Origin: Squalus acanthias
Taxonomy: Eukaryota
Direction of reading: 5' to 3'
Length of the DNA stretch: 64,000 bases
Assembly: GCA_030390025.1 (NCBI GenBank)
Contig: JASTWF010000322.1
Location: forward strand, 310,001-374,000
Both the position numbers and the translations under genes were made by a program. Position 1 is the first letter of the stretch. The number at the start of each line of letters is the position of its first letter. Of the stretch, positions 34,231-61,550 are shown one piece after another. Below the pieces are notes generated by a model. The model ran no database searches and was not told the origin of the DNA. It saw only the letters and a list, made by a program, of their open reading frames with translations.

Positions 34231-35418
34231 CTATTTCTCCGCGTGCACGCGCTCGTGGGCCACCAGGTAGCGCTTCTGCGCGAAGCTCTTGCCGCAGCGG
34301 GCGCAGCGGAAAGGCGCGGCGCCCGAGTGGCCCCGGCGGTGCCGGAGCAGGTTGCCGGCCTGGGCGAACTCCTTGCCGCAGTCGGGGCAGGGGAACGGCC
34401 GCTCGCCCGTGTGGGTGCGCTGGTGGCGGCGCAGGCTGCCCGTGTCGGCGAAGCTCTGGCCGCAGGCCGGGCACGGGTAGGGCCGCTCGCCGGTGTGGGT
34501 CCTCTGGTGGGCCAGCAGGTGGCTTCTGTCGGCGAATCGCTTGGGGCAGGCCGGGCAGCGGAAGGGGCGCTCCCCGGTGTGGGCCCGCTGGTGGGTCAGC
34601 AGGCGGCTAGTGTCGGCGAACCGCTTGCCGCAGACGCCGCACTCGAAGGGCCGCGCCCCCGCGTGCGCCCGCTGGTGCTTCCAGAGGTGGGAGCGCTGGG
34701 CGAAGGCCTTGGGGCAGTCGGCGCACCGGAAGGGGCGCTCGCCCGAGTGGGTGCGGCCGTGGTTGAGCAGCTGGCTGGCGTCGGCGAAGCCCTTGCCGCA
34801 GACGCCGCACGCGAAGGGCCGCGCCCCCGCGTGCGCTCGCTGGTGCCGTTGGAGGCTGCCCGCCTGGGTGAAGGAGCGGCCGCAGTCGGAGCAGCGGAAG
34901 GGGCGCTCCCCGGTGTGGGTGCGCTGGTGGCTCAGCAGCTGGCTGGTGCTGGCGAAGCGCTTGGCGCAGCCGGCGCACTCGAAGGGCCGCGCCCCCGTGT
35001 GGCTGCGCCGGTGCCGGGCCAGGTTGGACCGGTGGTTGAAGCCCTTGCCGCAGGACTCGCAGGCGAACAGCGCCTCCCCCGTGTGCATGCGCTGGTGCAG
35101 CCGCAGGCCGGCCGGCCTCCGGAAGGCCCGGCCACAGTCCCGGCAGGCAAAGGCCGGCTCGCCTGCCGCGTGCGTCTGCTGGTGCCGCCGCAGGTTGGAG
35201 GTGTGGTTGAACTCCCGGCCGCAGACCCCGCACTTGAACTGCTTCTCCCCCGTGTGGGTGACTCGATGGAGCAGGAGGTTGGTGGAGAGCTTGAAGGCCT
35301 TGCCGCAATCGGAACACTTGAACCGTCTCTCCTCCACTGCGGGAATGGGCGACTCCTGCCCAGGATCGGATTCGGGGCCGCCCGTGCTCGCACTGGCCTC
35401 CGGCGGCGCGCCAGCCAT
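34231..35418 (-). CDS. Tandem C2H2 zinc-finger protein, 13 fingers (ZNF-A); may be a terminal exon
   Basis: 395-aa intact ORF with 13 CxxC-x12-HxxxH repeats and TGERP-type linkers; short N-terminal leader. Confidence 0.92.
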   Translation of the reverse strand: MAGAPPEASASTGGPESDPGQESPIPAVEERRFKCSDCGKAFKLSTNLLLHRVTHTGEKQFKCGVCGREFNHTSNLRRHQQTHAAGEPAFACRDCGRAFRRPAGLRLHQRMHTGEALFACESCGKGFNHRSNLARHRRSHTGARPFECAGCAKRFASTSQLLSHQRTHTGERPFRCSDCGRSFTQAGSLQRHQRAHAGARPFACGVCGKGFADASQLLNHGRTHSGERPFRCADCPKAFAQRSHLWKHQRAHAGARPFECGVCGKRFADTSRLLTHQRAHTGERPFRCPACPKRFADRSHLLAHQRTHTGERPYPCPACGQSFADTGSLRRHQRTHTGERPFPCPDCGKEFAQAGNLLRHRRGHSGAAPFRCARCGKSFAQKRYLVAHERVHAEK

Positions 35419-35429
35419 CTCCCCTCGAT

Positions 35430-36165
35430 GGGTCTCTCTCTCGCCTCTCAGTCAGAAGGTTGTGGGTTTGAGTCCCCGGTCCAGGTAGTCGAGCTCAAAA
35501 ATCCAGGCCCACACTCCCCGGGGCCAGTACCGAGGGAACGCTGCACTGTCTGTGGTAGATGTATATACTCTAGGACTCGAGCCCCATAATCCAGGCCCAC
35601 ACTCCCCGGTGCCAGTACTGAGGGAGCGCTGCACTGTCGGAGGTAGATGTATATACTCTAGGACTCGAGCCCCATAATCCAGGCCCACACTCCCCGGTGC
35701 CAGTACTGAGGGAGCGCTGCACTGTCGGAGGTAGATGTATATACTCTAGGACTCGAGCTCCATAATCCAGGCCCACACTCCCCGGTGCCAGTACTGAGGG
35801 AGTGCTGCACTGTCGGAGGTAGATGTATATACTCTAGGACTCAAGCCCCATAATCCAGGCCCACACTCCCCGGTGCCAGTACTGAGGGAGTGCTGCACTG
35901 TCGGAGGTAGATGTATATACTCTAGGACTCAAGCCCCATAATCCAGGCCCACACTCCCCGGTGCCAGTACTGAGGGAGTGCTGCCCTGTCGGAGATGCCG
36001 TCTTTCGGGATGAGATGTTAAACCGAGGCCCCGTCTGCCCTCTCAGGTGGACGTAAAAGATCCCAGGGGGTCCACTGTTTCGAAGAAGAGCAGGTGGGGG
36101 GGGAGTTCTCCCCGGTGTCCTGGGGCCGATATCTATCCCTCAATCAGCGTCACGAAAGCAGATGA
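35430..36165 (+). mobile_element. DeuSINE with about six 88-bp units, head-to-head with ZNF-A
   Basis: CTCTCGCCTCTCAGTCAGAAGGTTGTGGGTTTGAGTCCC head, tandem units, Deu domain. Confidence 0.87.
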
Positions 36166-36589
36166 TAATCGAAGTGCCTTGCTCCTTTTCAAGCTGATTC
36201 TTGGGCCTTGCTCAGTCTCCGATCTTGCACTGACTCAAGCTCTCGGAAGAGAGAAGCTCTCGGTTTCTTGTGTTGACTCGATGTGCAGTTCCACCCACAC
36301 ATAACTCGGCTCTGCCTTCAGATCTCCCCGGAACGCCCGTGACGCTGGGCAATCCTTTCCCCTGAACCCTGACCTCTGTCATCCGAGCACGAGCTGACCT
36401 CTGTGAAGCCGACCGGGCCTTTTTTTTTCCTCTCTTCACACTTTGCCCCAGGAAGTATTCAGCCTGCGCTATTCCTGGTTCCCTCCAGGGTCTTAAAGCC
36501 AGCTGGAGTTCAGCATCGGCCTGGCTTTAAAGAAACATCGAAAAATAGGAGCAAGGAGTCGGCCCTTTGAGCCTGCTCCGCCATTCTCG

Positions 36590-37075
36590 ATAGAACCATA
36601 GAATGATACAGCACAGAAAGAGGCCCTTCGGCCCATCGATCCTGTGCAGGCTCTTTGGTCGAGCTCTCCAATTAGTCCCACTCTCCCCTCGCTCTTTCCC
36701 CACAGCCCTGCAAATTTTTCCCCTTCAAGTATTTCTCCAATTCCCCTTTTGAAAGTTACTATTGAATCTGCTTCCACCGCCCTTTCAGGCAGCGCGTTCC
36801 AGATCACAACAACTCGCTGCGTAAAGAAATGTTTCCTCATCTCCCCCTCTGGTTCTTTTGCCGATTATCTTCAATCTGTGTCCTCTGGTTACCCACCCTC
36901 CTGCCACTGGAAACAGTTTCTCCTTATTTACTCTCTCAAAACCCCTCGTGATTTTGAACACCTCTATTTAATCTCCCCTTAACCTTCTCTGCTCTAAGGA
37001 GAACAATCCCAGCTTCTCCAGTCTCTCCACGTAACTGAAGTCCCTCATCCCTGGTCCCATTCTCATCAATCTCCT
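36590..37075 (-). mobile_element. CR1 3' fragment
   Basis: RKHFFTQRVVVIWNALPERAVEADS; same subfamily as 28008-28645 and 60027-60790. Confidence 0.88.
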
Positions 37076-37720
37076 AGAGTATATACATCTACCTCCGACA
37101 CTGCAGCGCTCCCTCAGTACTGGCACCAGGGAGTGTGGGCCTGGATTATGGAGCTTGAGTCCTAGAGTATATACATCTACCTCCGACAGTGCAGCGCTCC
37201 CTCAGTACTGGCACCGGGGAGTGTGGGCCTGGATTATGGAGCTCAAGTCCTAGAGTATATACATCTGCCTCCGACAGTGCAGCGCTCCCTCAGTACTGGC
37301 ACCGGGGAGTGTGGGCCTGGATTATGGAGCTCAAGTCCTAGAGTATATACATCTGCCTCCGACAGTGCAGCGCTCCCTCAGTACTGGCACCGGGGAGTGT
37401 GGGCCTGGATTATGGAGCTCAAGTCCTAGAGTATATACATCTGCCTCCGACAGTGCAGCGCTCCCTCAGTACTGGCACCGGGGAGTGTGGGCCTGGATTA
37501 TGGGGCTTGTGTCCTAGAGTATATACATCTACCTCCGACAGTGCAGCACTCCCTCAGTACTGGCACCGGGGAGTGTGGGCCTGGATTATGGAGCTCGAGT
37601 CCTAGAGTATATACATCTACCTCCGACAGTGCAGCACTCCCTCAGTACTGGCACCAGGGAGTGTGGGCCTGGATTATGGAGCTCGAGTCCTAGAGTATAT
37701 ACATCTACCTCCGATAGTGC
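37075..37720 (-). repeat. 88-bp DeuSINE-derived minisatellite without SINE head or body
   Basis: About 7 units with 88-bp periodicity. Confidence 0.93.
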
Positions 37721-37854
37721 ACCATTCCCAAGTTGTTGTTGCTGGGCAGTATTCCTAATCCCATGTGCCGACTCTGTCCCCGATCCCTTTATTCGCTGCG
37801 TCTTCCGTGACCTATCTGTCCAATCTTAAAAGCTGACATGCTCTCTGCTAGCGC

Positions 37855-39215
37855 ATCTCCAATTCTGGCCTCTCGCGCATCCCTGATTTCCATCGCTCCA
37901 CCATTGGCGGCCGTGCCTTCAGCTGCCTGGGGCCCTGAGCTCTGGAATTCCCTCCCTAAACCTCTCCGCCTCTCTCTCCTCCTTTAAGACGCTCCTTAAA
38001 ACCGCCCTCTTTGACCAAGCTTTTGGTCGCCTGTCCTAATATCTCCTTATGTGGCTCGGTGTCAAATTTTCATAGAATCGTAGAGATTTACGGCCCATTG
38101 TGTCTGTGCCGGCCGACAAAGAGCCATCCGGCCTAATCCCACTTCCCAGCTCTTGGTCCGTAGCCCTGTAGGTTACGGCACTTCAAGCGCATATCCAAGT
38201 ACTGTTTAAATGCGATGAGGGTTTCTGCCTCTACCACCCTCTCAGGCAGTGAGTTCCAGACCCCCACCACCCTCTGGGTGAAGAAAGTTCTCCTCAACTC
38301 CCCTCTAAACCTTCTCCCAATTATTTTCAATCTGTGCCCCCTGGTTATTGACCTCTCCGCTAAGAAACATAGAAACATAGAAGATAGGAGCAGGAGTAGG
38401 CCATTCGGCCCCTCGAGCCTGCTCCGCCATTTGATGAGATCATGGCTGATCATCCAAACTCAGTACCCTGTCCCTGCTTTCTCCCCATATCCTTTGATCC
38501 CTTTAGCTTTAAGAAATATATCTAACTCATTCTTGAATATATTTAATGACTTGGCCTCAACTACCTTCTGTGGTAGAGAATTCCACAGGTTCACCACTCT
38601 CTGGGTGAAGAAATTCCTCCTAATTTCTGTCCTAAATGGCTTACCCCTTATCCTTAGATTATGATCCCTGGTTCTGGACTCTCCGACCATCGGGAACATT
38701 CTTCCTGCATCTAGTTTGTCCAGACCTGTCAGAATTTTATATGTTTCGATGAGATCCCCTCATATAAATAGGGAAATAGGTCCTTCCTATCTCGGCCCCT
38801 CATAATTTTACACACCTCAATTAAATCTCCCCTCAGCCTCCTCTGTTCCAAAGAAAACAACCCCAGCCTCTCCAATCTTTCTTCATCGCTAAAATTCTCC
38901 AGTCCTGGCAACATCCTGGTAAATCTCCTCTGTACCCCCTCGAGTGCGATCACATCCTTCCTGTAAGGTGGTGACCAGAACTGCACGCAGTATTCTAGCT
39001 GTGGCCTAACTAGTGTTTTATACAGTTCTAGTATAACCTCTTTCTTTCAATTCCTTTCCATATCCTTCTATTCCTTTCTCCCTCATGTGTTTATCCAGCC
39101 TCCCCTTAAATGCATCGACGCTATTCGCCTCAACCACTCCCTGTGGGAGCGAGTTCCACATTCTCACCACTCTCTGGGGAAAGAAGTTTCTCCTGAATTC
39201 CCGATTGGATTTATT
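37855..39215. mobile_element. Cluster of an L2 3' end (plus, 37855-38070) and nested CR1 fragments (minus)
   Basis: L2 3' UTR; CR1 ORFs 38133-38453, 38460-38699 and 38729-38986. Confidence 0.85.
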
Positions 39216-39394
39216 CGCGACTATTTTGGAACGCTTCAAGCCACACACAACCACTGCAGTCCCAATTGACAGGAACACGACAGGAGGCGTTTCTGATATC
39301 GGGCGGAACATTTCTTTCCACCAAGGCCGCACAACACATTGGGAGACCAAAAGGCGGACCGGAGAGCAATGTGGGAAGGGTTGTCCACATGTGA

Positions 39395-40168
39395 GCAATT
39401 CGTCGATGACTAAGTCCAACATCGCCTTCAGTGTGCCAGTGCAGCCTTCGGTCACCTGAGGAAGAGAGTGTTTGAAGACCAGGACCTCAAACCCAGCACC
39501 AAGCTCATGGTCTACAGAGCAGCAGTGATACCCGCCCTGCTGTATGCCTCAGAGACATGGACCATGTAGAGCAGGCACCTCAAAGCACTGGAGAGGTACC
39601 ACCAACGCTGCCTCCGCAAGTTCCTGCAAATCCCTTGGCAGGATAGGCGCACCAACGTCAATGTTCTCGCTCAGGCCAACATCCCCAGCATCGAAGCTTT
39701 GACCACGCTCGATCAGCTCCGATGGACGGGCCACATCGTCCGCACGCCCGATACGAGACTCCCAAAACAAGCGCTCTACTCGGAGCTCCGACACGGCAAG
39801 AGAGCCCCAGGTGGGCAGAGGAAACGCTTCAAGGACACCCTCAATGCCTCCTTGATAGAGTGCAACATCCCCACCGACACCTGGGAATCCCTGGCCCAAG
39901 ACCGGAGCACAAAGTGGAGGAGAAGCATCCGGGAAGGCACCGAACACCTCGAGTCTCTTCGCTGGGAGCAAGCGGAAGCCAAGCGCAAACAGCGGAAGGA
40001 GCGCACGTCAACCCAAGCACCCCCACCCACCCGCCCCCTTCAACCACCGTCTGCCCCACCTGTGGCAGAGACTGTCGGTCCCGCATTGGACTCATCAGTC
40101 ACCTGAGAACTCATTTTTAATGTGGAAGCAAGTCATCCTCGGTTCCGAGGGACTGCCTAAGAAAAAGA
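39395..40168 (+). mobile_element. RTE-clade LINE 3' portion
   Basis: AFGHLRKRVFEDQDLKPSTKLMVYRAAVIPALLYASETW..., LRWTGHIVR..DTRLPKQALYSELRHGKRAPGGQRKRFKDTL and a C-terminal CPTCGRDCRSRIGLISHLRTH. Confidence 0.9.
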
Positions 40169-40239
40169 ATTCCGGTACATCTTCGGTTGGGGCAGGACTG
40201 AGGGTCTCGAGCCCGGCTGCTATTCCATGGGCAGGGTCA

Positions 40240-41162
40240 ATGAATCATTGAATCACAGGAGGAGGTCAGTCGGCCCGTTGTGCCTGTATCGGCTCTAAGA
40301 CAGAGCTGTGCAATTTCGACCCACTCCCCAACTTGTTCCCCACGGCTCTAGAAATCTGTCCTCGTCGACGACACGTCCAATTGTCGGTTAGGTTCCCATG
40401 GAATCTGATTCCATCAACCTATCAGGCAGTGCGTTCCAGATCGTAACAACCCTCTCTGTGTGAAGAAATTTCTCCTCATTTCTCCCTCGAGTTCTTATTT
40501 TAAATCTGTGTCCTCTGGTTACCGAGCCACTTGCCAGAGCAAACAGTTTCTCCCTATCTGTTCTATCGAAGCTCCCTCATAATTTTGACCTCTATTAGGT
40601 CTCCCCTTAACCTTCTCTGCTCTAAGGAGAACAATCCCAGCTTCTCCAGTCTTCTCACATCACTGAAGTCCCTCATCCCTGGTACCATTCTGGTCAATCT
40701 CCCCTTAACCTTCTCTGCTCCAAGGAGAACAACCCCAGCTTCTCCAGTCTCTCCACATCACTGAAGTCCCTCATCCCTGGAACCATTCTGGTCAATCACC
40801 CCTTAACCTTCTCTGCTCCAAGGAGAACAACCCCAGCTTCTCCAGTCTCTCCACATCACTGAAGTCCCTCATCCCTGGAACCATTCTGGTCAATCACCCC
40901 TTAACCTTCTCTGCTCCAAGGAGAACAACCCCAGCTTCTCCAGTCTCTCCACATCACTGAAGTCCCTCATCCCTGGAACCATTCTGGTCAATCACCCCTT
41001 AACCTTCTCTGCTCCAAGGAGAACAACCCCAGCTTCTCCAGTCTCTCCACATCACTGAAGTCCCTCATCCCTGGTACCATTCTGGTCAATCACCCCTTAA
41101 CCTTCTCTGCTCCAAGGAGAACAATCCCAGCTTCTCCAGTCTCTCCACATCACTGAAGTCCC
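40240..41162 (-). repeat. Degenerate CR1 3' end with a 98-bp VNTR (about 40590-41162)
   Basis: About 6 near-identical 98-bp units of CR1 ORF2. Confidence 0.9.
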
Positions 41163-41237
41163 TTGGGTTTGTTAAGTGGGCTGCCTCGCCTCTGTTGGGA
41201 CCTATTACAATTTCAAAATTGGCACTGTGATCAGTCG

Positions 41238-41748: not shown

Positions 41749-43184
41749 TGTGGAAGTGCATTTTTTGTCTCGGACACACAATGGCTTCCTAGAGACAAAG
41801 GGGGAGAAATTCAGTATCGCCCCGTTTGGGGCGCAATTATCGGCCGGGCGCAAAGATTAGCGCCTGGCACTAATTATCGCCTCTGACTGCAAACTTGACT
41901 TTTATCGCCCCTGGAGGTGATTGGAGCGCTAAATCAGGCGCTACACATCTGTCTTAAGGCGCAAAGGCCGAGGAGCGAGGCGCTACCTCAGAGCGCTGGT
42001 GAAGCTCGTGTGATGTCAGTCAGCAATGGAACACAGACACAATGGCACGGGCCAGTTCTTAAAGGGGATGGTTAATCTTGCTTTCCATCCACATCCTGCT
42101 CATTGCAGCCTTGAATCTCGGCCTGGAGAGACCTGCACATCAAATCTGCTGGAAAGAACAATGGAGAGGACCAGGGAAAGAGCTCAGAGTGCAGCCCCCA
42201 CAGTCTCTGCTAAATCGATACAAGGAAGGGCAAATCAAAATGAACCTGCAAAGTGCTGCTCAGTACCCAAAACTCCTTCACACAACGTTGAATCTCTCCA
42301 GAAGTCTCTCCCTCTCTCTCTCAGAATGCGTAGTTCAAAAATGGCACCAACAATAAAAGGCAGGAAGCGGTCACCTTTAAATAGCGCTCTCCCTTTCCCT
42401 TCATGACTGCAGAACGCTCCCCTCAACCTGTCGTTGCTAGCGTCAGGCGGTAAGGCAGGGGGCGCCACTCAATATCTACTCCGGGGCGTTACCGGGGCGT
42501 TGCGCACTCGACTGATGTCACGATCTGCCGGCGCAGGAGATCGTGGCAGTAGTATTTAGCGCCGCCGCAAAATGTCTAGTTAATTTCGCGAACGGCGCAA
42601 ACTTCGCCGCGCCCAGGCGCTAGATGCTTTGCGCCCCATTAGCGCCCTCTTAAGGCGCTAACGGGAGGCGCAACCAACTGAATTTTTCCCCCAAAGAGTG
42701 ATACAAAATGGCCGACTCTGACTTGTTTGGGAAAAGATAAAGTTGTTATGTTTCTCATGGAGATGAATTTAAACTTGCAGACTATGCTGTCTGCAAAGTC
42801 TTCTAGTACAGAGAAAAAAAAGGCTTCTTCTATTCAACTTGAGATAACCAAGGACTAGTGAAGTAAACAACCAGATGCCTTGGCCTTGGTAGAAGAAGAA
42901 GAACAGATAGATAGACTCCATTTTGTAGAGATTAGCTAGTCTCATCGTAAGGCATTTCTTATGTTTTTTCTTAACTTTTAACTTAGCTTACCTTAAACAA
43001 CATGTCATGTGATATGTAAAGCTTGTATTATCAGTGTATAAGAATGTTCCATTTTCTGTGATTTTTCAGTGTGTCATCGTAGCTATTTGACTACGGTTGC
43101 ATTCTCCTTGCAAGCAAGTAAATAATAAAGCCTTCTTTGACGATACTGTTTCAAAAGTCTTACTCGGATGTCGAAACTTCGACA
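41749..43184 (+). mobile_element. Possible solo LTR interrupted by a MITE
   Basis: TG...CA ends, flanks GCCCC/ACCCC, TATA-like motif near 43037 and AATAAA near 43125. Confidence 0.4.
41800..42692. mobile_element. Non-autonomous DNA transposon, PIF/Harbinger-like
   Basis: TIRs GGGGGAGAAATTCAG / CTGAATTTTTCCCCC, 3-bp TSD AAA, GGCGC-rich subtermini. Confidence 0.75.
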
Positions 43185-43514
43185 ACCCCCCACTGCTCCT
43201 TCCTGAAATATTGCAAGGTCGACAAGGTTGACTGCAACGGGACCGAATCTCAGGCGCCGCGTATAACGGCCGGCCGATCCGATACCGCCCATTTTGCGCC
43301 CCCGCCCGGGACGAATTTCTAGACCGCTGTCTTTTGAAGTGGGGAACGAGTTAAAAAACCATCGCTGGTCGCTCACAGAATGCTGTAAGAGAGACAGTTG
43401 CGAACGTAACAAGCCACACGTCCCTAATGTGTGGTCAAGATAACTGACCTTTGAAGACTAAAAGCAACTCAGTTGAGACATGTTTACCACTTCCGCTGCC
43501 CTTAGGGGTTTGTT

Positions 43515-44240: not shown

Positions 44241-44254
44241 ATCTGGGTCACAAT

Positions 44255-44575
44255 GCTTCCAAGTTATCTTTTAATCAGCGTTCAGCAGTTTGGGCGAATA
44301 TATTGAGTATGTAGCTTACACATGTTTACCTTAGGACATGTAACCCAATCCGTGAAGGTGCATGCGGGCCAAGGTCCAATCAGGTTGCAGGAATGAATTG
44401 TGCATGAGCCTGTCATGTGTATTTTAATGTATAAAAATGTAGTGTTTGCTGTAACAATTTGGAGAAGTCTCCTAGCACGCCAGTAGAGATTGTCTCCCCA
44501 CGGGTGTAATAAAGACAGCTTGACTATCGATCTGAAAACCTTGTGTCGAGTGTTAGTTTAAAATACTCCACAACA
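44255..44575 (+). mobile_element. Possible LTR 3' half
   Basis: CCAAT, TATAAAA (about 44430), AATAAA (about 44508) and a terminal ...CAACA in LTR-like order. Confidence 0.35.
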
Positions 44576-45085: not shown

Positions 45086-45087
45086 AT

Positions 45088-48194: not shown

Positions 48195-49211
48195 TCAGTG
48201 ATCAGTTGAAGGCCGGTCTTCGAGACGCTGTTGCCCGCAGGGCTCTGCCCGAGCGGGCATCTGGTCTTGGGCGTGGATGCGCTGGTGCCTCCGGAGGCAC
48301 CAGGCCTCGTTGAAGCCCTTCCCGCACTCGGGACACTTGAAGGCCCGGTCCCCGCTGTGGGTGCGCCGATGGCTAACGAGGCTGGAGCGCTTGGTGAAGG
48401 TCTTGCCGCATTCCTCGCAGCGGAAGGGCTTCTCGCCCGTGTGGGTCCTCTGGTGGATCAGCAGGCAGGAGGACTGGATGAAGGCCTTGCCGCAGTCCGG
48501 GCACTTGAAGGGCCTCTGATCAGTGTGCGTGCGCTGGTGAACGGTCAGGCTGTCGGCTCGGGCGAACCCTTTGCCGCACTCCGGGCACTTGTAGGGCCTT
48601 TCGCCCGTGTGGGTGCGGAGGTGCTTGACCAGGCCCGACTTGGCGGTGAACCTCTTACCGCACTCCCCGCACTTGAAGGGGCTCTGGCCCGTCCGAGCGC
48701 ACCGGTGCCTCAGTAGGCTAGGCCTGAGGATGAACTGCTTGCCGCAGCCTGAGCAGTTGAAGGTCTTCTCGGCCCGTCGGATGCACTGGTGGGACGCCAG
48801 GCAGGAGACCTGGGTGAAGCCCTTCCCGCAGGCCCCGCACTTGAAGGGCCTCTCGCCGGCGTGGATGTGCTGGTGGACCATCAGGTTGTAGGACTGGGAG
48901 AACTCCTTGCCACACTGGCAACACCGGAAGGGCCGCTCGCCGGTGTGGATCCGCTGGTGGCGCTGGAGGCTGGACTGGTCGGTGAACTCCTTGCCGCAGT
49001 CCCGGCACTTGAAGGGCCTCTCGCCCGTGTGGACCCGCCGGTGCCTCTGGAGGACCGACCGGTAGCTGAATCCCTTCCCGCAATCGGGGCACCGGAAGGG
49101 CCTCGCCGCCAGGGGTGTCTGCGGGCCCGGGGAGTCCTGGCGGGCCGGGTCCGCGCCGCCAACGCCGTCGCCAGACCCCCGCGACATCCCGTCGCCCGCG
49201 GGGAGGCTCAT
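48195..49211 (-). CDS. Tandem C2H2 zinc-finger protein, 10 fingers (ZNF-B); frame open to 49304
   Basis: Ten CxxC repeats with TGERP/TGEKP linkers. Fingers 4 and 5 lack the last His (HQCIR, HRCAR). First ATG at 49211. Confidence 0.9.
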
Positions 49212-49299
49212 GCCCACTCTTCGAGCGAGGAGAACAGTCCGCCCCCGGCTGGCGATACTGGGCGGAGGCAGAGGTGGAGAAGATCGGCCTCGGCCCTGG

Positions 49300-49810
49300 C
49301 TCACTCTCTCATTCTTGAGTCAGAAGGTCGTGAGTTCGAGTCTCCCCACTCCTGAGGCCTGAGCACAAAAATCCAGGCCCACACTCCCCGGTGCCAGTAC
49401 TGAGGGAGCGCTGCACTGTCGGAGGTAGATGTATATACTCTAGGACTCGAGCCCCATAATCCAGGCCCACACTCCCCGGTGCCAGTACTGAGGGAGCGCT
49501 GCACTGTCGGAGGTAGATGTATATACTCTAGGACTCGAGGCCCATAATCCAGGCCCACACTCGCCGGTGCCAGTACTGAGGGAGTGCCGCACTGTCGGAG
49601 GTGCCGTCTTTCGGGACGAGACGTTAAACTGAGGCCCCCGTCGGCCCTCTCAGGTGGATGTAAAAGATCCCACAGTCACTATTGGAAGAAGAGCAGGGGG
49701 GAGTTCTCCCCGGTGTCCTGGGGCCGAGATCTATCCCTCGACCGACATCACAACCAAGCAGGCGATCTGGTCATTATCTCGTAAGTTTGCGGGAGCTTGC
49801 TGTGCGCACC
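49300..49810 (+). mobile_element. DeuSINE with three 88-bp units, head-to-head with ZNF-B
   Basis: GAGTCAGAAGGTCGTGAGTTCGAGTC head, tandem units, Deu domain. Confidence 0.87.
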
Positions 49811-50664: not shown

Positions 50665-53600
50665 ATCTCTCAGGGCGCTTCACAGGAGCGATTATAAACA
50701 CAAATTCGACCCGAGCCACAGAAGGAGATATTAGGGACAGGCGACCAAAAGCTTGGTCAAAGAGGTCGGTTTTAACAAGCGTCTTAAAGGAGGAGAGAGA
50801 GGCGAAGAGGTTTAGGGAGGGAATTCCAGAGCTCAGGGCCCAGGCAGCTGAAGGCATGGCCGCCAATGGTGGAGCGATGGAAATCGGGGGATGCGCAAGA
50901 GGCCAGAATTGGAGGAGCGCAGAGATCTCGGAGGGTTGTACGGACTGGAGCAGGTTAGAGAGATAGGGAGGGGGTGAGGACCATGGAGGGATTTGAACAG
51001 GAGGATGAGAATTGTAGGGCTGTAGGAGGTTACAGAGATAGGGAGGGGGTGAGGACCATGGAGGGATTTGAACAGGAGGATGAGAATTGTAGGGCTGGAG
51101 GAGGTTACAGAGATAGGGAGGGGGCGAGGGGCCATGGAGGGATTTGAACAGGAGGATGAGAATTGTAGGAGCTGGAGGAGGTTACAGAGATAGGGAGGGG
51201 GGCGAGGGCCATGGAGGGATTTGAACAGGAGGATGAGAATTGTAGGGGCTGGAGGAGGTTACAGAGATAGGGAGGGGGTGAGGGGCCATGGAGGGATTTG
51301 AACAGGAGGATGAGAATTGTAGGGGCTGGAGGAGGTTACAGAGATAGGGAGGGGGCGAGGGCCCTGGAGGGATTTGAACAGGAGGATGAGAATTGTAGGG
51401 GCTGGAGGAGGTTACAGAGATAGGGAGGGGGCGAGGGCCATGGAGGGATATGAACAGGAGAATGAGAATGTAGGGCTGGAGGAGGTTATAGAGATAGGGA
51501 GTGGGCGAGGGCCATGGAGGGATTTGAACAGGAGGATGAGATTTGTAGGGCTGGAGGAGGTTAAAGAGATAGGGAGGGGGGCGAGGGCCATGGAGGGATT
51601 TGAACAGGAGGATGAGAATTGTAGGGCTGGAGGAGGTTACAGAGATAGGGAGGGGGCGAGGGCCATGGAGGGATTTGAACAGGAGGATGAGAATTGTAGG
51701 GGCTGGAGGAGATTACAGAGATAGGGAGGGGGCGAGGGTCATGGAGGGATTTGAACAGGAGGATGAGAATTGTAGGGCTGGATGAGGTTACAGAGATAGG
51801 GAGGGGGCGAGGGCCATGGAATGATTTGAACAGTAGAATGAGAATTGTAGGGCTGGAGGAGGTTACAGAGATAGGGAGTGGGCAAGGGCCATGGAGGGAT
51901 TTGAACATGATGCTGAGAATTGTAGCGCTAGAGGAGTTTACAGAGATAGGGAGGGGGCGAGGGCGATGGAGGGATTTGAACAGGAGGATGAGAATTGGAG
52001 GGGCTGGAGGAGGTTACAGAGATAGGGAGGGGGCGAGGGCCATGGAGGGATTTGAACAGGAGGATAAGAATTGTAGGGGCTGGAGGAGGTTACAGAGATA
52101 GGGAGGGGGCGAGGGCCATGGAGGGATTTGAACAGGAGGATGAGAATTGTAGGGGCTGGAGGAGGTTACAGAGATAGGGAGGGGGCGAGGGCCATGGAGG
52201 GATTTGAACAGGAGGATGAGAATTGTAGGGGCTGGAGGAGGTTACAGAGATAGGGAGGGGGCGAGGGCCATGGAGGGATTTGAACAGGAGGATGAGAATT
52301 GTAGGGGCTGGAGGAGGTTACAGAGATAGGGAGGGGGCGAGGGCCATGGAGGGATTTGAACAGGAGGATGAGAATTGTAGGGCTGGAGGAGGTTAAAGAG
52401 ATAGGGAGGGGGTGAGGGCCATGGAGGGATTTGAACAGGAGGATGAGAATTGTAGGGGCTGGAGGAGGTTTCAGAGATAGCGAGGGGGGCGAGGGTCATG
52501 GAGGGATTTGAACAGGAGGATGAGAAGTGTAGAGGCTGGAGGAGGTTACAGAGATAGGGAGGGGGCGAGGGCCATGGAGGGATTGGAACAGGAGGATGAG
52601 AATTGTAGGGGCTGGAGGAGATTACAGAGATAGGGAGGGGGCGAGGGTCATGGAGGGATTTGAACAGGAGGATGAGAATTGTAGGGCTGGAGGAGGTTAC
52701 AGAGATAGGGAGGGGGCGAGGGCCATGGAATGATTTGAACAGTAGAATGAGAATTGTAGGGCTGGAGGAGGTTACAGAGATAGGGAGTGGGCAAGGGCCA
52801 TGGAGGGATTTGAACATGATGCTGAGAATTGTAGGGGCTGGAGGAGGTTACAGAGATAGGGAGGGGCGAGGGCCATGGAGGGATTTGAACAGGAGGATGA
52901 GAATTGTAGGGGCTGGAGGAGGTTACAGAGATAGGGAGGGGGTGAGGGGCCATGGAGGGATTGGAACAGGAGGATGAGAATTGTAGGGGCTGGGGGAGGT
53001 TACAGAGGTAGGGAGGGGGCGAGGGCCATGGAATGATTTGAACTGTAGAATGAGAATTGTAGGGCTGGAGGAGGTTACAGAGATAGGGAGTGGGCAAGGG
53101 CCATGGAGGGATTTGAACATGATGCTAAGAATTGCAGCGCTAGAGGAGTTTACAGAGATAGGGAGGGGGCGAGGGCGATGGAGGGATTTGAACAGGAGGA
53201 TGAGAATTGGAGGGGCTGGAGGAGGTTACAGAGATAGGGAGGGGGCGAGGGCCATGGAGGGATTTGAACAGGAGGATAAGAATTGTAGGGGCTGGAGGAG
53301 GTTACAGAGATAGGGAGGGGGCGAGGGCCATGGAGGGATTTGAACAGGAGGATGAGAATTGTAGGGGCTGGAGGAGGTTACAGAGATAGGGAGGGGGCGA
53401 GGGCCATGGAGGGATTTGAACAGGAGGATGAGAATTGTAGGGGCTGGAGGAGGTTACAGAGACAGGGAGGGGGCGAGGGCCATGGAGGGATTTGAACAGG
53501 AGGATGAGAATTGTAGGGGCTGGAGGAGGTTACAGAGACAGGGAGGGGGCGAGGGCCATGGAGGGATTTGAACAGGCGGATGTGAATTGTAGGGGCTGGA

Positions 53601-54035
53601 GGAGGTTACAGAGATAGGGAGGGGCGAGGGGCCATGGAGGGATTTGAACAGGCGGATGTGAATTGTAGGGGCTGGAGGAGGTTACAGAGATAGGGAGGGT
53701 CGAGGGGCCATGGAGGGATTTGAACAGGCAGATGTGAATTGTAGGGCTGGAGAATGTTACAGAGATAGGGAGGGTCGAGGGGCCATGGAGGGATTTGAAC
53801 AGGAGGATGAGAATTGTAGGGGCTGGAGAAGGTTACAGAGATAGGGAGGGGGCGAGGGGCCATGGAGGGATTTGAACAGGAGGATGAGAATTGTAGGGGC
53901 TGGAGGAGGTTACAGAGGTAGGGAGGGGGCGAGGGGCCATGGAGGGATTTGTACAGGAGGATGAGAATTTTAAAATCGGGGCGTTGCCGGACCGGGAGCC
54001 AGCGTAGGTCAGCGAGCACAGGGGGTGATGGGTGA
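50665..54035 (-). repeat. L2 3' end containing an approximately 3-kb 75-77-bp VNTR
   Basis: About 39 units of GGGATTTGAACAGGAGGATGAGAATTGTAGGGGCTGGAGGAGGTTACAGAGATAGGGAGGGGGCGAGGGCCATGGA, flanked by collinear L2 sequence. Confidence 0.93.
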
Positions 54036-54269: not shown

Positions 54270-56590
54270 TCCTAGAGGGGGTGCAGGAACAGAGAGGCCT
54301 GGGGGTGTATGTACACAAGTCTTTGAATGTGATGGGACAGGTTGAGAAGGCTGTTAAAAAGGCATACGGGAACCTTGGCTTTATAAATAGAGAGGTCGCA
54401 CAACACCAGGTTATAGTCCAACAGTTTTATTTGAAATCACAAGCTTTCGGAGCTTACTACTCCTTCGTCGGGTGAAGTAAAAAGATACAGAATCGCCAAA
54501 GCATATATAGATAGAGAACAATGCATGTGTACCTTACAATTGCAGACAACTAAATTAAATCATCCTGACTATCTGCCGAGGTGTGATAAAGTTAATCAGG
54601 TCAGCCAGGAAGGTACCACATCAAAGACATAGCAAGATACAACTGAGACAATGAGGTGGCGTCGCAGGGGGTCTAACGTGTCAAAAGCTGCCGTCTGTAT
54701 GTAAAATGATAAGCTTTAAAATTTTTACTTTTTTACTGGGAAAATGTTTACTTTTTTACTGGGAATCACATCTGTGAACAAGCCAACGACGACTCGAGTC
54801 CGGATCACGTCATGTATCGTGACATAAACCCAAGATCCCGGTTGAGACCGTCTTCATGAGTGCGGAACTTGGCTATCAGTTTCTGCTCGATGATTTTGCG
54901 TTGTCGTGTGTTCCTAAGGTTGCCTTGGAGAACGCTTACCCGCAGATCCGAGGCTGAATGTCCTTGACTGCTGAAGTGTTCCCCGACTGGGAGGTAACAA
55001 TCCTGCCTGGCGATTGTTGCGCGGTACTCGTTCATACGTTGTCTCAGTGTCTGCATGGTCTCACCGATGTACCATGCCGCGGTGCATTCTTTCCTGCAAC
55101 GTATGAGGTAGACAACGTTGGCCGAGTCACATGAGTATGTACCATGTACCTGGTGGGTAGTGTCCTCACGTGTGATGGTGGTATCTGTGTTGATGATCTG
55201 GCATGTCTTGCAGAGTTTGCCGTGGCAGGGTTGTGTGGTGTCGTGGTCGCTGTTATCCTGAAAGCTGGGTAATTTGCTGCGAACGATGGTACTTCTGAGG
55301 TTAGGCGGCTGTTTGAAGGCAAGTAGTGGAAGCGTGGGGATGGCCTTAGCGAGGTGTTTGTCGTCATCGATGACATGTTGAAGGCTGCGAAGAACATGGC
55401 GTTGTTTCTCCGCTCCGGGGAAGTACTGAACGACGTAGGGTACCCTGTTGGTTGTGTCCCGTGTTTGCCTTCTGAGGAGGTCTATGCGATTTTTCGCTGT
55501 GGCCCGTCGGAACTGTCGATCGATGAGTCGAGCGTCATATCCCGTTCTTACGAGGGCGTTTTTCAGCGTCCGTAGGTGTCCATCGCGTTCCTCCTCGTCT
55601 GAGCAGATCCTGTGTATTCGCAGGGCTTGTCCATAGGGGATGGCTTCTTTAACGTGGTTAGGGTGGAAGCTGGAGAAGTGGAGCATCGTGAGGTTGTCCG
55701 TGGGCTTGCGGTAGAGTGAAGTGCTGAGGTGTCCGTCTTTGATGGAGATTCGTGTGTCCAGGAATGAAACCGATTCTGAGGAGTAGTCCATGGTGAGTTT
55801 GATGGTGGGATGGAACTTGTTTATGTTATCGTGTAGTCTTTTCAGTGATCCTTCGCCATGGGTCCAAAGGAAGAAAATTTCGTCGATGTATCTAGTGTAC
55901 AGCGTTGGCTGGCGGTCCTGTGCAGCGAAGAAGTCTTGCTCGAACTTGTGCATGAAGATGTTGGCGTATTGGGGTGCGAATTTGGTCCCCATGGCTGTTC
56001 CGTGTGTTTGGGTAAAAAAATGGTTGTCGAAGGTGAAGACATTGTGGTCAAGGATGAAGCGGATGAGTTGTAGGATGGCGTCTGGAGATTGGCTGTTGTT
56101 GGTGTTGAGTACTGAGGCTGTCGCAGCGATGCCGTCATCGTGGGGGATACTGGTGTAGAGTGCCGATATGTCCATAAATATAGGCATAGAGTACAAAAGC
56201 AAGGAAGCTATGCTAAACTCGTTATAAAGCACTGGTTAGGCCCCAGCTGGAGTATGGTGTCCAATTCTGGGCACCGCACTTTCGGAAGGATGTCAAGGCC
56301 TTGGAGAGGGTGCAGAGGAGATTGACCAGAATGATTCCAGGGATGAGGGACTTCAGTAATGTGGAGGGACTGGAGAAGCTGGGGTTGTTGATGAGGACTT
56401 CAGTGATGTGGAGAGACTGGAGAAGCTGGGGTTGTTCTCCTTGGAGCAGAGAAGGTTAAGGGGGAGATTGACCAGAATGGTACCAGGGATGAGGGACTTC
56501 AGTGATGTGGAGAGACTGGAGAAGCTGGGATTGTTCTCCTTAGAGCAGAGAAGGTTAAGAGGGAGATTGACCAGAATGGTACCAGGGATG
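54270..56590 (+). mobile_element. CR1 LINE split by a Penelope element (54270-54392 and 56174-56590)
   Basis: GGCTTTATAAATAGAG|GCATAGAGTACAAAAGC continuity across the insertion; 98-bp repeats at the 3' side. Confidence 0.85.
54390..56176 (-). mobile_element. Penelope-like element, 5'-truncated, RT plus GIY-YIG endonuclease
   Basis: MDISALYTSI, GTAMG, RYIDEIF, FLD, LYRKPT and VVYLIRC...YIGET in one open frame (54805-56176). 3' UTR with hammerhead-like motif; TSD ATAAATA(G/T)AG. Confidence 0.95.
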
Positions 56591-56823: not shown

Positions 56824-59608
56824 TAGGAGGAAGCCCATTCAGACCCTCGAGCCTGTTACACAGGAACAGGAGGAGGCCCATTCAGCTCCTCGAGCCTGTT
56901 ACACAGGAACAGGAGGAGGCCTATTCAGCCCCTCGAGCCTGTTACACAGGAACAGGAGGAAGCCCATTCAGCCCCTCGAGCCTGTTACACAGGAACAGGA
57001 GGAGGCCCATTCAGCCCCCTCGAGCCTGTTACACAGGAACAGGAGGAGGCCCATTCAAACCCTCGAGCCAGTAACACAGGAACAGGAGGAGGCCCATTCT
57101 GTTAATCGAGCCTATTACACAGGAACAGGAGGAAACCCATTCAACCCCTCAAGCCTGTTACACAGGAACTGGAGGAGGCCCATTCAGCTCCTCGAGCCTA
57201 TTACACAGGAACAGGAGGAGGCCCATTCAGCCCCTCGAGCCTATTACACAGGAACAGGAGGAGGCCCATTCAGACCCTCGAGCCTATTACACAGGAACAG
57301 GAGGAGGCCCATTCAGCCCCTCGAGCCTATTACACAGGAACAGGAGGAGGCCCATTCAGCTCCTCGAGCCTGTTACACAGGAACAGGAGGAGGCCCATTC
57401 AGACCCTCGAGCCTATTACACAGGAACAGGAGGAGGCCCATTCAGCCCCTCGAGCCTGTTACACAGGAACAGGAGGAGGCCCATTCAAACCCTCGAGCCA
57501 GTAACACAGGAACAGGAGGAGGCCCATTCTGTTAATCGAGCCTATTACACAGGAACAGGAGGAAACCCATTCAACCCCTCAAGCCTGTTACACAGGAACT
57601 GGAGGAGGCCATTCAGCCCCTCGAGCCTGTTACAGATGAACAGGAGGAGGCCCATTCAGCCCCTCGAGCCTGTTACACAGGAACAGGAGGAGGCCCATTC
57701 AGCCCCTCGAGCCTGTTACATCGGAACAGGAGGAATCCATTCCGCCCCTCGAGCCTGTTACACAGGAACAGGAGGAGGCCATTCAGCCCCTCGAGCCTGT
57801 TACTATAGGAATAGGAGGTGGCCATTCAGCCCCTCGAGCCCATTACATAGGAACAGGAGGAGGCCATTCAGCCCCTTGAGCCAGTTACACAGGAACAGGA
57901 GGAGGCCATTCAGCCCCTCGAGCCTGTTACACAGGAACAGGAGGAGGCCCATTCAGCCCCTCGAGCCTGTTACACAGGAACAGGAGGAGGCCCATTCAAA
58001 CCCTCGAGCCAGTAACACAGGAACAGGAGGAGGCCCATTCTGTTAATCGAGCCTATTACACAGGAACAGGAGGAAACCCATTCAACCCCTCAAGCCTGTT
58101 ACACAGGAACTGGAGGAGGCCATTCAGCCCCTCGAGCCTGTTACAGATGAACAGGAGGAGGCCCATTCAACCCCTCGAGCCTGTTACACAGGAACAGGAG
58201 GAGGCCCATTCAGCCCCTCGAGCCTGTTACACATGAACAGGAGGAGGCCCATTCAGCCCCTCGAGCCCATTACACAGGAACAGGAGGAGGCCATTTAGCC
58301 CCTCGAGCCTGTTACTATAGGAACAGGAGGAGGCCATTCAGCCCCTTGAGCCCATTACATAGGATCAGGAGGAGGCCATTCAGCCCCTCGAGCCTGTTAC
58401 ACAGGAACAGGAGGAGGCCCTTTCAACCCCTCGAGCCAGTTACACAGGAAAAGGAGGAGGCCCATTCAGCCCCTCGAGCCTGTTACACAGGAACAGGAGG
58501 AGACCCATTCAGCTGCTCAAGCCTGTTACACAGGAACAGGAGGAGGCCCATTCAGACCCTCGAGCCTATTACACAGGAACAGGAGGAGGCCCATTCAGAC
58601 CCTCGAGCCTATTACACAGGAACAGGAGGAGGCCCATTCAGCCCCTCGAGCCTGTTACACAGGAACAGGAGGAGGCCCATTCAGCCTCTCGAGCCTGTTA
58701 CACAGGAACAGGAGGAGGCCCATTCAGCCCCCTCGAGCTTGTTACACAGGAACAGGAGGAGCCCCATTCAGCCCCTCGAGCTTGTTACATAAGAACAGGA
58801 GGAGGCCCATTCAGCCCCCTCGAGCCTGTTACACAGGAACAGGAGGAGGTCCATTCAGCCCCCTCGAGCCTGTTACACAGGAACAGGAGGAGGCCCATTC
58901 AGCCCCTCGATCCTGTTACATAGGAACAGGAGGAGGCCCATTCAGCCCCCTCGAGCCTGTTACACAGGAACAGGAGGAGGCCCATTCAGCCCCTCGAGCC
59001 TGTTACACAGGAACAGGAGGAGGCCCATTCAGCCCCTCGAGCCTGTTACACAGGAACAGGAGGAGGCCCATTCAGCCCCTCGAGCCTGTTACACAGGAAC
59101 AGGTGGAGGCCCATTCAGCCCCTCGAGCCTGTTACATTGGAACAGGAGGGGGCCATTCAGCCCCTTGAGCCCATTACACAGGAAAAGGAGGAGGCCATTC
59201 AGCCCCTCGAGCATGTTACTATAGGAATAGGAGGTGGCCATTCAGCCCCTCGAGCCCATTACATAGGAACAGGAGGAGGCCATTCAGCCCCTTGAGCCCA
59301 TTACATAGGAACAGGAGGAGGCCATTCAGCCCCCTCGAGCCTGTTACACAGGAACAGGAGGAGGCCCATTCAGCCCCTCGAGCCTGTTACACAGGAACAG
59401 GAGGAGGCCCATGCAGCCCCTCGAGCCTGTTACACAGGAACAGGAGGAGGCCCATTCAGCCCCTCGAGGCTGTTACACAGGAACAGGAGGAGGCCCATTC
59501 AGCCCCTCGAGCCTGTTACACAGGAACAGGAGGAGGCCCATTCAGCCCCCTCGAGCCTGTTACACAGGAACAGGAGGAGGCCCATTCAGCCCCTCGAGCC
59601 TGTTACAC
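56824..59608. repeat. 43-bp CR1-tail minisatellite, about 65 units
   Basis: Same unit as 1-2996; runs directly into a minus-strand CR1 3' UTR (59608-59925). Confidence 0.95.
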
Positions 59609-60026
59609 CATTTAATTAGATCCCGGCTGATCTGTATCTTAACTCCATTTACCCGCATTGGTTACGTAACCCTTAATACCCTTACCCAACAAAAATCTAC
59701 CGATCTCAGTTTTGACCTTTTCAATTGACCCCCAGCCTTCACAACTTTTTGGGGGAGAGAGTTCCAGATTTCCACCACCCTTTGTGTGAAGAAGTGCTTC
59801 CTGACATCACCCCTGAACGGCCTGGCTCTAATTTTAAGGTTCTGCCCCCCTTGTTCTGGACTCCCCCCACCAGAGGAAATAGTTTCTCTCTCTCTCTACC
59901 CTATCGAATCCTTTAATAATCCTCGTCTCGATTAATGATACCATAGATAACATATCGGTGTCAGATAGATTTTTATTTAACTTTTCAAACAAAATATTGT
60001 ACATTTAAAATCAACTTCAGTTAACT

Positions 60027-60790
60027 AGAATCACAGAATGATAGAACACAGGAGGAGTCCATTCGGCCCATCGATCCTGTGCGGGCTCTTTGGTCGAGCT
60101 CTCCAATTAGTCCCACTCTCCCCCCCCTCGCTCTTTCCCCACAGCCCTGCAAATTTTTCCCCTTCAAGTATTTCTCCAATTCCCCTTTTGAAAGTTACTA
60201 TTGAATCTGCTTCCACCGCCCTTTCAGGCAGCGCGTTCCAGATCACAACAACTCGCTGCGTAAAGAAATGTTTCCTCATCTCCCCCTCTGGTTCTTTTGC
60301 TGATTATCTTCAATCTGTGTCCTCTGGTTACCCACCCTCCTGCCACTGGAAACACTTTCTCCTTATTTACTCCATCAAAACCCCTCATGATTTTGAACAC
60401 CTCTATTAAATCTCCTCTTAACCTTCTCTGCTCTAAGGAGAACAACCCCAGCTTCTCCAGTCTCTCCACATCACTGAAGTCCCTTATCCCTGGTCCCATT
60501 CTGGTCAATCTCCCCTTAACCTTCTCTGCTCTAAGGAGAACAACCCCAGCTTCTCCAGTCTCCACATCACTGAAGTCCCTCATCCCTGGTACCATTCTGG
60601 TCAATCTCCCCTTAACCTTCTCTGCTCTAAGGAGAACAATCCCAGCATCTCCAGTCTCTCCACATCACTGAAGTCCCTCATCCCTGGAACCATTCTGGTC
60701 AATCTCCCCTTAACCTTCTCTGCTCTAAGGAGAACAACCCCAACTTCTCCAGTCTCTCCACATCTCTGAAGTCCCTCAATCCCTGGAACC
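60027..60790 (-). mobile_element. CR1 3' end with 98-bp VNTR
   Basis: ORFs 60031-60279 and 60224-60604; starts about 20 nt after the ZNF-C stop codon. Confidence 0.9.
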
Positions 60791-60809
60791 GTCCCAGTTC
60801 CTCGTCCGT

Positions 60810-61550
60810 CTAACGGCTCTCCTGCCCCGCGTGGGTCCGCTGGTGTTTGAGCCTGGTGGCCAGCTGGCCGAACCTCCGCCCGCACTGGCTGCACTCGAAG
60901 GGCCTCTCTCCGGTGTGGGTGCGGGCGTGGGCGGCCAGCGTGCCGGCCAGGGCGAACCGGCGCCCGCAGTCAGGGCAGGCGTAGGGCCGCTCCCCGCTGT
61001 GTGTGCGGCGGTGCCGCAGCAGATTGGAGAGCTGGCCGAACCGCCGGCCGCACTCGCCGCAGCCGAAGGGCCTCTCATCGGCGTGGGTGCGCTCGTGGGC
61101 GGCCAGCGTGCCGGCCAGGGCGAACCGGCGCCCGCAGTCGGGGCAGGCGTAGGGCCGCTCCCCGCTGTGGGTGCGACGGTGCCGCAGGTAGCTGGTCCTC
61201 TCCACGAACTCCCGGCCGCAGTCGGCGCACTTGTAGGGCCGCTCCCCCGTGTGGGCCCGTCGGTGCCGGAGCAGGTTGAAGCCCTGGGCGAACTCCTTGC
61301 CGCAGTCCTGGCACCGGAAGAGCTTCTCCCCGCTGTGGGTAAGCTGGTGCAGCAGGAGGTTGGTCGACACCTTGAAGTCCTTGCCGCATTGGCCGCACTT
61401 GAAGGGCCTGGGGTCCCGGCCACGGTCGGCCGGGCCGGATCTCCCCGCCGGAGCCTTCCCGCGTCCCGCGCGCCCCGAGCGACTCTCCTCCCCGTCCGTA
61501 GCCCCGGAAGGGGTCGGGGCGGCTGCGACCTGCTCGGGGTCCGATTCCAT
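60810..61550 (-). CDS. Tandem C2H2 zinc-finger protein, 7 fingers (ZNF-C)
   Basis: Seven intact fingers, first ATG at 61550 (MESDPEQ), in-frame candidate splice acceptor at 61607/61606. Confidence 0.9.
   Translation of the reverse strand: MESDPEQVAAAPTPSGATDGEESRSGRAGRGKAPAGRSGPADRGRDPRPFKCGQCGKDFKVSTNLLLHQLTHSGEKLFRCQDCGKEFAQGFNLLRHRRAHTGERPYKCADCGREFVERTSYLRHRRTHSGERPYACPDCGRRFALAGTLAAHERTHADERPFGCGECGRRFGQLSNLLRHRRTHSGERPYACPDCGRRFALAGTLAAHARTHTGERPFECSQCGRRFGQLATRLKHQRTHAGQESR

Follow-up and report, generated by a model that had tools for sequence, protein, structure and literature searches.

Results

The three co-oriented zinc-finger genes Z1, Z2 and Z3, located within the stretch of DNA analysed here (64,000 nucleotides, referred to as the window), are probably transcription-factor genes of the zinc-finger-only type that diverged long ago and belong to the extensive set of C2H2 genes in a cartilaginous fish. 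By their appearance they are ordinary representatives of a gene class that is very large and has already been counted.

Layout and integrity of the zinc-finger ORFs

The ORFs were obtained by six-frame translation and all are stop-free (Table 1), with ATG-to-ATG distances of 13,793 bases (Z1-Z2) and 12,339 bases (Z2-Z3). The first-pass annotation had described three intact, co-oriented, GC-rich ORFs with 13, 10 and 7 fingers at a spacing of about 13 kb; this layout stands, and so do the counts when taken as finger units, but two of the ten Z2 units lack the last His. Each single ORF carries at least 5 tandem units of the Kruppel-type form C-x2-C-x12-H-x3-H with TGERP-type linkers, and only finger-type Pfam families were matched, the zf-C2H2 stretches numbering 13, 8 and 7 in Z1, Z2 and Z3, respectively. 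All four zinc ligands were retained in 28 of the 30 units, in a 28-residue register, and the composition-matched probability of a stop-free frame alone was 0.004, 0.0008 and 0.025 (Z1, Z2 and Z3, respectively); the arrays are therefore not a product of chance. The leaders (32, 38 and 49 aa) are, as previously described, short and of low complexity, being G/P/A/S-rich with 2-5 hydrophobic residues, and all three pairwise alignments between them were no better than those of shuffled sequences. A single exon can encode each protein, with the short low-complexity leader preceding the tandem array.

Table 1. Positions in the window of the zinc-finger ORFs and of the neighbouring features
Feature	Position	Strand	Description
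Z1 ORF	34231..35418	-	ATG 35418, stop 34231; 395 aa; 32-aa low-complexity leader and 13 canonical C2H2 fingers
Z1 finger 1	35239..35322	-	Hydrophobic recognition helix, atypical linker; common to Z3 finger 1
tRNA-headed SINE-like element, copy 1	35429..36161	+	Antisense to Z1, with its head 10 bases from ATG; contains an 88-bp tandem array of 5.8 copies
CpG-rich single-copy segment	46965..47370		CpG o/e 0.97; may be the promoter or a first exon of Z1
Z2 ORF	48195..49211	-	ATG 49211, stop 48195; 338 aa; 38-aa leader and 10 finger units, 8 canonical
Z2 fingers 4 and 5 (adjacent)	48678..48845	-	Second zinc-binding His lost
Candidate splice acceptor of Z2	49258..49280	-	46 bases before ATG; 14/17 pyrimidines, phase 2; non-repeat sequence
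tRNA-headed SINE-like element, copy 2	49297..49808	+	Antisense to Z2, with its head 85 bases from ATG; contains an 88-bp array of 2.6 copies
CpG-rich single-copy segment	49809..50667	-	CpG o/e 0.83; GC-type donor-like site at 49916; candidate Z2 upstream exon
Z3 ORF	60810..61550	-	ATG 61550, stop 60810; 246 aa; 49-aa leader and 7 canonical fingers
Z3 finger 1	61320..61403	-	Paralogue of Z1 finger 1 (6/7 helix residues identical, 77% identity in nucleotides)
LINE fragment	61564..61654	+	Antisense to Z3, starts 13 bases before ATG; 80% to copy at 45821-45910

The ORFs have a GC content of 0.68-0.73 (GC3 0.90-0.94 vs GC1 0.59-0.68 and GC2 0.55-0.60), and such extreme GC makes stops rare, so that the frames of decaying or non-functional paralogues could partly stay open for this reason. 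Consistent with decay are the two adjacent Z2 fingers without a zinc ligand, the repeats that come within 10-20 bases of the starts and stops of the ORFs, and the lack of an acceptor-like site before the Z1 ATG by the rule used for Z2 and Z3. However, zero stops and zero frameshifts were found across 979 codons, in which the fingers are mostly ligand-complete; no repeat is inserted inside any of the ORFs, although 73% of the window is present in it at least twice; and CpG is undepleted (o/e 0.77-0.91, vs 0.33-0.43 in two old LINE fragments). The substitution counts point both ways, with pN 0.17 and pS 0.42 for finger 1 (Z1 vs Z3) against pN 0.16 and pS 0.17 (small counts, all sites) for an internal duplication of Z3, which by this measure shows little constraint. 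Decay is accordingly regarded as improbable.

Divergence of the paralogues and of their fingers

The arrays are about 65-70% identical in nucleotides between paralogues, so by sequence the three genes look old and mutually divergent, with no young radiation. The arrays grew via internal finger duplication and their differences fall mainly at the base-contacting residues, with pN of 0.58 at contact positions vs 0.27 in the framework (144 within-gene finger pairs; silent sites saturated and GC-biased). The internal duplication of Z3 covers two fingers (168 bp, 91% matches), and its fingers 4 and 6, the youngest duplicate pair, show 0 changes in the helix. The recognition helices, which had been called divergent, are mostly so, the exceptions being this identical pair and finger 1 of Z1 relative to that of Z3. 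The surrounding region is GC-rich and saturated with repeats, and tandem duplication together with birth-and-death turnover would have given rise to the cluster there.

Upstream regions

No match to KRAB (PF01352), SCAN, BTB, ZAD or SET was obtained in the ORFs, in the three leaders or in 185 of the 242 upstream minus-strand frames of at least 30 aa; the other 57 frames lie wholly in tandem arrays, and Pfam is blind to undescribed effectors. The earlier description of the genes as KRAB-less thus held as far as the window shows. Nor was any non-TE segment common to the upstream regions of Z1, Z2 and Z3 found within the window. Since repeat sequence begins 10 bases before the Z1 ATG and 13 bases before the Z3 ATG, and neither an upstream effector nor a common exon was found, Z1, Z2 and Z3 are probably zinc-finger-only proteins. 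Any upstream exons would then be non-coding. Z3 lies only 2.4 kb from the window end, and its upstream exons may therefore be outside.

The annotation had suggested that the effector might be on an unseen exon, and the same observations speak against this. In its most specific form, the ORFs would be last exons of longer genes with an undescribed short domain encoded upstream, as in the FiNZ layout, where the domain is just 28 aa with no similarity to known domains. The frames do stay open 5' of the Z2 and Z3 ATGs, phase-2 acceptor-like sites precede both, and the donor-like site at 49916 is of phase 2 and ends an open frame. However, this in-frame reading has neither a Met nor a Pfam match, the acceptor-like sites before Z3 (61607 of phase 1, 61633 and 61648 of phase 2) are all inside the antisense LINE fragment, and Z1 has none; such sites occur at a background of 1.8 per kb. 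A short N-terminal domain kept across the paralogues was likewise not found, judged by the shuffle-like leaders and the lack of a common upstream segment (no FiNZ profile was scored). An effector of this kind is thus very unlikely. Four sequencing runs of one study (the run kind being guessed) contain 0.63-0.70 of the words of 48110-50930, where a two-exon Z2 model predicts 0.66, which is a lead but no evidence on expression; no RNA run containing the locus was among the matches listed.

The shared first finger and TE recognition

Between Z1 and Z3, the finger-1 helices differ by one amino-acid and three silent changes, a 6/7 likeness reached by 0.16% of random background finger pairs, and their positions -1, 5 and 6 are all hydrophobic, as in 1.7% of 1281 background fingers. 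This finger is, judged from its residues, a possible protein-contact finger. The suggestion that the first finger itself is the effector was therefore right in singling it out, while the effector role is that of a candidate. Sharing of the finger is also expected from plain duplication with later turnover of the distal fingers, and Z2 is without a first finger of this type. In zinc-finger-only genes the central fingers would recognise a DNA site as such fingers usually do and, with no separate effector, regulation would proceed by occupancy or by cofactors bound on finger surfaces, for which finger 1 of Z1 and Z3 is the best candidate.

The cluster had been proposed as a TE-recognition system. 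For such a system independent of KRAB, the variable fingers would read LINE, SINE or Penelope elements and the hydrophobic first finger would recruit a repressor. The rarity of the first-finger likeness and of its hydrophobic positions agrees with this, as do the failure to find an outside orthologue, the absence of KRAB-box families from cartilaginous fishes (PMC8455134) and the correlation across metazoans between the numbers of zinc-finger ORFs and of retroelements, whatever the accessory domain (PMC10547256). Against it stand the alternative origin of the shared finger, its lack in Z2, the age of the paralogues and the unchanged helix of the youngest pair, and nothing local points to an arms race. 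None of 16 crude four-finger motifs was significant when scanned in the 64-kb window, a weak test with a crude recognition code; better predictors, too, retrieve no more than 5% of known motifs. Fifteen were not enriched, and the 16th owed its hits to one 43-bp minisatellite and was matched by 21 of 500 controls in hits and by 72 of 500 in distinct sites. The TE-dense setting was rejected as support: it equals the regional background and does not discriminate, since a random point of the window has self-repeated sequence at most 90 bases away in 80% of cases.

TE recognition by these genes is consequently considered unlikely, and nothing local indicates a dedicated TE-silencing role. By analogy with the metazoan-wide trend, some binding to TE-derived sites is a fair deal easier to accept, if still short of what would be expected on balance. 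The wider scheme, in which cartilaginous fishes without KRAB would tame or silence TEs by zinc-finger-only proteins (a conserved, hydrophobic finger 1 as cofactor-binding effector, variable distal fingers as readers, antisense SINE and LINE fragments as 5' ends), is more doubtful than recognition itself.

Relatives and known systems

No orthologue of Z1 was found with the whole protein (8000 candidates scored, word-limited), the 162 matches being generic with 32-53% identity among the 120 listed, or with residues 1-120 (9 matches among 219 candidates). Residues 1-105 of Z3, in a likewise word-limited search, gave 21 matches among 248 candidates and no orthologue (best, 59% over two fingers, generic), and its leader gave a single match by HMMER among 1.84 billion representatives, to an unrelated repeat protein. 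Exact look-up of protein forms gave 0/4, and the ESM Atlas returned generic chordate zinc-finger clusters. In layout, the nearest named match is a stingray protein, 'zinc finger protein 497-like' (XP_059813593.1), but its helices differ and its identity is 49%, so that it is not an orthologue. The genes may thus be lineage-specific, which would fit turnover under conflict as well. This lack of Z1 and Z3 orthologues and the two broken fingers of Z2 count against the zinc-finger-only transcription-factor reading preferred here. Zinc-finger-only polydactyl vertebrate genes have, like Z1-Z3, a short low-complexity leader and tandem fingers with no KRAB, SCAN or BTB, but many human members are deeply conserved, 136 of 212 at least as far back as tetrapods (PMC3971581, Table 4).

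The KRAB-ZFP/TRIM28 system of sarcopterygians is likewise clustered, with the array on one exon, canonical linkers and occasional degenerate fingers, whereas for Z1-Z3 no KRAB was matched, either in the ORFs or in the upstream frames scanned. FiNZ-ZNFs of cyprinids and KRAB-like ZNFs of ray-finned fish also form clustered non-KRAB arrays in repeat-dense regions (PMC10547256, PMC11603059), but in these an upstream exon encodes a conserved N-terminal domain, while the leaders of Z1-Z3 are unrelated and no common upstream exon lies in the window.

The general notion that zinc-finger expansions track TEs independently of the effector is already published, with sharks in the data table (PMC10547256); compared with lineage-specific metazoan C2H2 expansions, Z1-Z3 look old and mutually divergent. 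The supplement of Wells 2023 (PMC10547256) counts 305-3586 such ORFs per assembly in 11 cartilaginous-fish assemblies, 444 of them on one white-shark scaffold. Like Z1-Z3, these have at least 5 tandem fingers, clustering and variable contact residues in retroelement-rich genomes; the sharks appear in the supplement only, with 0 main-text mentions and no function or accessory domain given. In agreement with the earlier statement that no characterised equivalent is known in cartilaginous fish, literature searches listed no functional work on zinc-finger clusters of sharks.

Z1-Z3 do not answer how sharks and rays, whose uncharacterised zinc-finger ORFs number from hundreds to thousands, control a very large retroelement load without KRAB proteins; young, high-copy subfamilies would be a better entry point. 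The first finger shared by Z1 and Z3 is their one useful lead, bearing on the possible replacement of an effector domain by a finger.

Repeat elements beside the ORFs

Rfam and ARAGORN gave no matches and no tRNAs, respectively, in the window. The copy at 45821-45910 of the LINE fragment, which we take to be CR1-like, lies beside an RVT_1 match. The tails of the two SINE-like copies, presumably of the Deu type, are 77% identical, with 8 private changes each and 3 shared ones against two other copies.

Zinc-finger ORFs and their relatives

Six-frame translation of the window gave three C2H2 zinc-finger ORFs, Z1, Z2 and Z3, whose arrays were all on the minus strand and without stops. Arrays and coordinates agreed with the first-pass annotation, with the amendments that some helices are shared and that units 4 and 5 of Z2 were degenerate, the second histidine being absent, which is why Pfam counted 8 fingers there. 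GC3 of the ORFs was 0.90-0.94 versus 0.55-0.68 at codon positions one and two, and CpG o/e was 0.77-0.91, whereas two LINE fragments had 0.33 and 0.43 and the window as a whole 0.54. High CpG is not peculiar to zinc-finger genes, since a reverse-transcriptase ORF, presumptively of Penelope type, reached 0.97. Z1, Z2 and Z3 are real genes, probably for zinc-finger-only transcription factors.

Coordinates of the features in the window
Feature	Position	Strand	Remarks
Z1	35418 (ATG) to 34231	minus	395 aa, 13 fingers
Z2	49211 (ATG) to 48195	minus	338 aa, 10 units
Z3	61550 (ATG) to 60810	minus	246 aa, 7 fingers
RVT_1 match	45960-46217		Pfam
Reverse-transcriptase ORF	54808-56235	minus	476 aa, stop-free, RVT_1 match, nuclease-like C-terminal part; CpG o/e 0.97
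43 bp minisatellite arrays	21-2996, 56825-59608		
76 bp minisatellite arrays	26496-27104, 30309-31415, 50936-53969		
88-bp unit arrays	11439-12396, 22080-22598, 29882-30048, 35489-35994, 37072-37721, 49370-49602		
98 bp minisatellite arrays	40603-41163, 60409-60790		
SINE-like copy near Z1	35429-36161	antisense	head 10 bases from Z1 ATG
SINE-like copy near Z2	49297-49808	antisense	same orientation as Z1 copy; head 85 bases from Z2 ATG
3' part of LINE	39203-40241	plus	terminates in single C2H2-like motif
Single-copy CpG-rich segments	41749-43513, 44246-45088		short inverted repeats; minus strand without Pfam match
Single-copy GC- and CpG-rich segment	23012-23657		GC 0.65, CpG o/e 0.91; 10.5 kb downstream of Z1

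In homology searches, the entire Z1 protein matched generic zinc-finger proteins (32-53% identity, 8000 candidates scored), and its residues 1-120 gave 9 matches, all generic. Residues 1-105 of Z3 gave 21 matches, the best being a stingray protein of the same layout, but with only 49% identity and different helices. A search of 1.84 billion representative sequences brought up no genuine relative of the low-complexity leader ahead of the Z3 fingers. No orthologue was found with these four queries.

The three ORFs belong to an already known kind of gene. Table 4 of Liu et al. 2014 (PMC3971581) gives 136 of 212 human zinc-finger-only genes as conserved to tetrapods or earlier. ORFs with at least 5 fingers were counted per assembly by Wells et al. 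2023 (PMC10547256), and the 11 chondrichthyan rows located by name in the supplements (two further genera having no row) read 305, 315, 475, 703, 1106, 1165, 1179, 1223, 1635, 1851 and 3586, the human count being 697. Elsewhere in the literature, KRAB is enriched among families absent from cartilaginous fishes (Tan et al. 2021, PMC8455134), KRAB-like and FiNZ proteins and TRIM33 of ray-finned fish are treated (Carotti et al. 2024, PMC11603059; a review, PMC10380595), and shark SINE families are named (Nishihara et al. 2016, PMC4824008). As had been proposed, the literature searched, mostly outside subscription titles, yielded no work on the function of zinc-finger clusters in sharks.

Search for an effector domain

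Among the best 25 Pfam matches per ORF only finger-type families occurred, and none of the three leaders had a match. Minus-strand frames of at least 30 aa upstream of the ORFs numbered 242, of which 185 (86 + 99) were scanned against Pfam, the other 57 lying entirely inside tandem arrays; no match to KRAB, SCAN, BTB, ZAD or SET was found in the 185. Since Pfam is blind to an undescribed domain, the three upstream regions were also compared, and within the window no non-TE-like segment was common to them. Leader alignments were no better than shuffles in all three pairs, as protein or DNA. The earlier proposal of an effector on an unseen exon was thus not borne out.

The nearest upstream repeat was 10, 85 and 13 bases from the ATG of Z1, Z2 and Z3, respectively. 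Acceptor-like sites, with a background frequency of 1.8 per kb, were found ahead of Z2 (one, phase 2) and Z3 (one of phase 1 and two of phase 2, all within an antisense LINE fragment), and none ahead of Z1; a donor-like site at 49916 would link an open frame that lacks a Met codon to Z2. Most simply, the start ATG would lie on the finger exon and the upstream exons would be non-coding; for Z3, which begins 2.4 kb short of the end of the window, they may fall outside it.

The first fingers of Z1 and Z3 were 77% identical in DNA, with 6 of 7 helix residues in common. For comparison, 1281 fingers of 148 proteins were taken from the matches of the homology searches; 0.16% of random pairs had at least 6 helix residues in common, no finger of the set matched the hydrophobic Z1/Z3 helix at 6 of 7, and 1.7% were hydrophobic at -1, 5 and 6 simultaneously. 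The helix carried one amino-acid and three silent changes, and the entire finger gave pN 0.17 and pS 0.42 (amino-acid and silent differences per site, respectively). Therefore Z1 and Z3 are paralogues in which finger 1 was kept and the other fingers turned over, from one pair and hence a small sample; Z2 had no first finger of this type. The suggestion that the first finger is itself the effector holds in so far as a retained finger fits a candidate protein-contact finger; the retention would also fit a DNA anchor common to both genes, or a relic of the duplication.

TE recognition

The TE-dense setting was confirmed in that 73% of the window recurs elsewhere inside it, yet none of the three ORFs was interrupted by a repeat. 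It is a regional background, because 80% of positions had self-repeated sequence at most 90 bases away.

Recognition of TEs by the fingers was not supported by the local evidence. The pN at contact positions (helix -1, 2, 3 and 6) versus framework was 0.58 versus 0.27 for within-gene finger pairs (n=144) and 0.63 versus 0.30 for between-gene pairs (n=291), an excess typical of any C2H2 array and no test of positive selection, because silent sites were saturated and GC-biased. Fingers 4 and 6 of Z3, the most recent duplicate, had no helix changes, and arrays of different genes were only about 65-70% identical. Under a crude recognition code, the window showed no enrichment for 15 of 16 four-finger motifs; for the 16th, one word from the 43-bp minisatellite accounted for 64 of the 147 hits, and 21 of 500 permutations of the motif scored equally well. 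This test is weak, since in Wells et al. 2023 (PMC10547256) more refined predictors retrieved 11 of 236 known motifs. The same source gives a correlation of finger ORF number with retroelements, irrespective of accessory domain, and this general trend and one conserved finger stand behind the idea of KRAB-free TE silencing. A TE-silencing role with an effector finger is unlikely, and the complete reading, in which cartilaginous fishes at large control TEs in this way and antisense SINE and LINE fragments provide the 5' ends of the genes, is more doubtful still.

Repeats of the window

Outside the genes, the window consisted of retroelement fragments and minisatellites. The labels CR1, L2, RTE, Penelope and Deu-type SINE rest on resemblance and are presumptive, as is RTE-like for the LINE part that ends in a C2H2-like motif. 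Together with the stingray match, itself a weak pointer, these resemblances suggest that the window comes from a cartilaginous fish. The reverse-transcriptase ORF is probably young and 5'-truncated, and the single-copy segments with inverted repeats are possibly non-autonomous DNA elements. Unit lengths of the tandem arrays were 43, 76, 88 and 98-99 bases; the large minisatellites (43, 76 and 98 bp) recur at several places and may derive from short pieces of LINE 3' regions, which they appear to resemble.

A tRNA-headed SINE-like element had four copies in the window, two of them antisense near the starts of Z1 and Z2, which by a post hoc hand estimate is unlikely to be chance under uniform placement. 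The tails of these two copies showed 77% identity; 3 changes were common to both and each had 8 of its own, so that they may reflect one old insertion or two. The copies might also act as 5' ends of the two genes. Full-length 88-bp units were 94-100% identical between places, more alike than the SINE-like tails surrounding four of the six arrays (77-96%), which suggests that this minisatellite spreads or is homogenised within older SINE copies.
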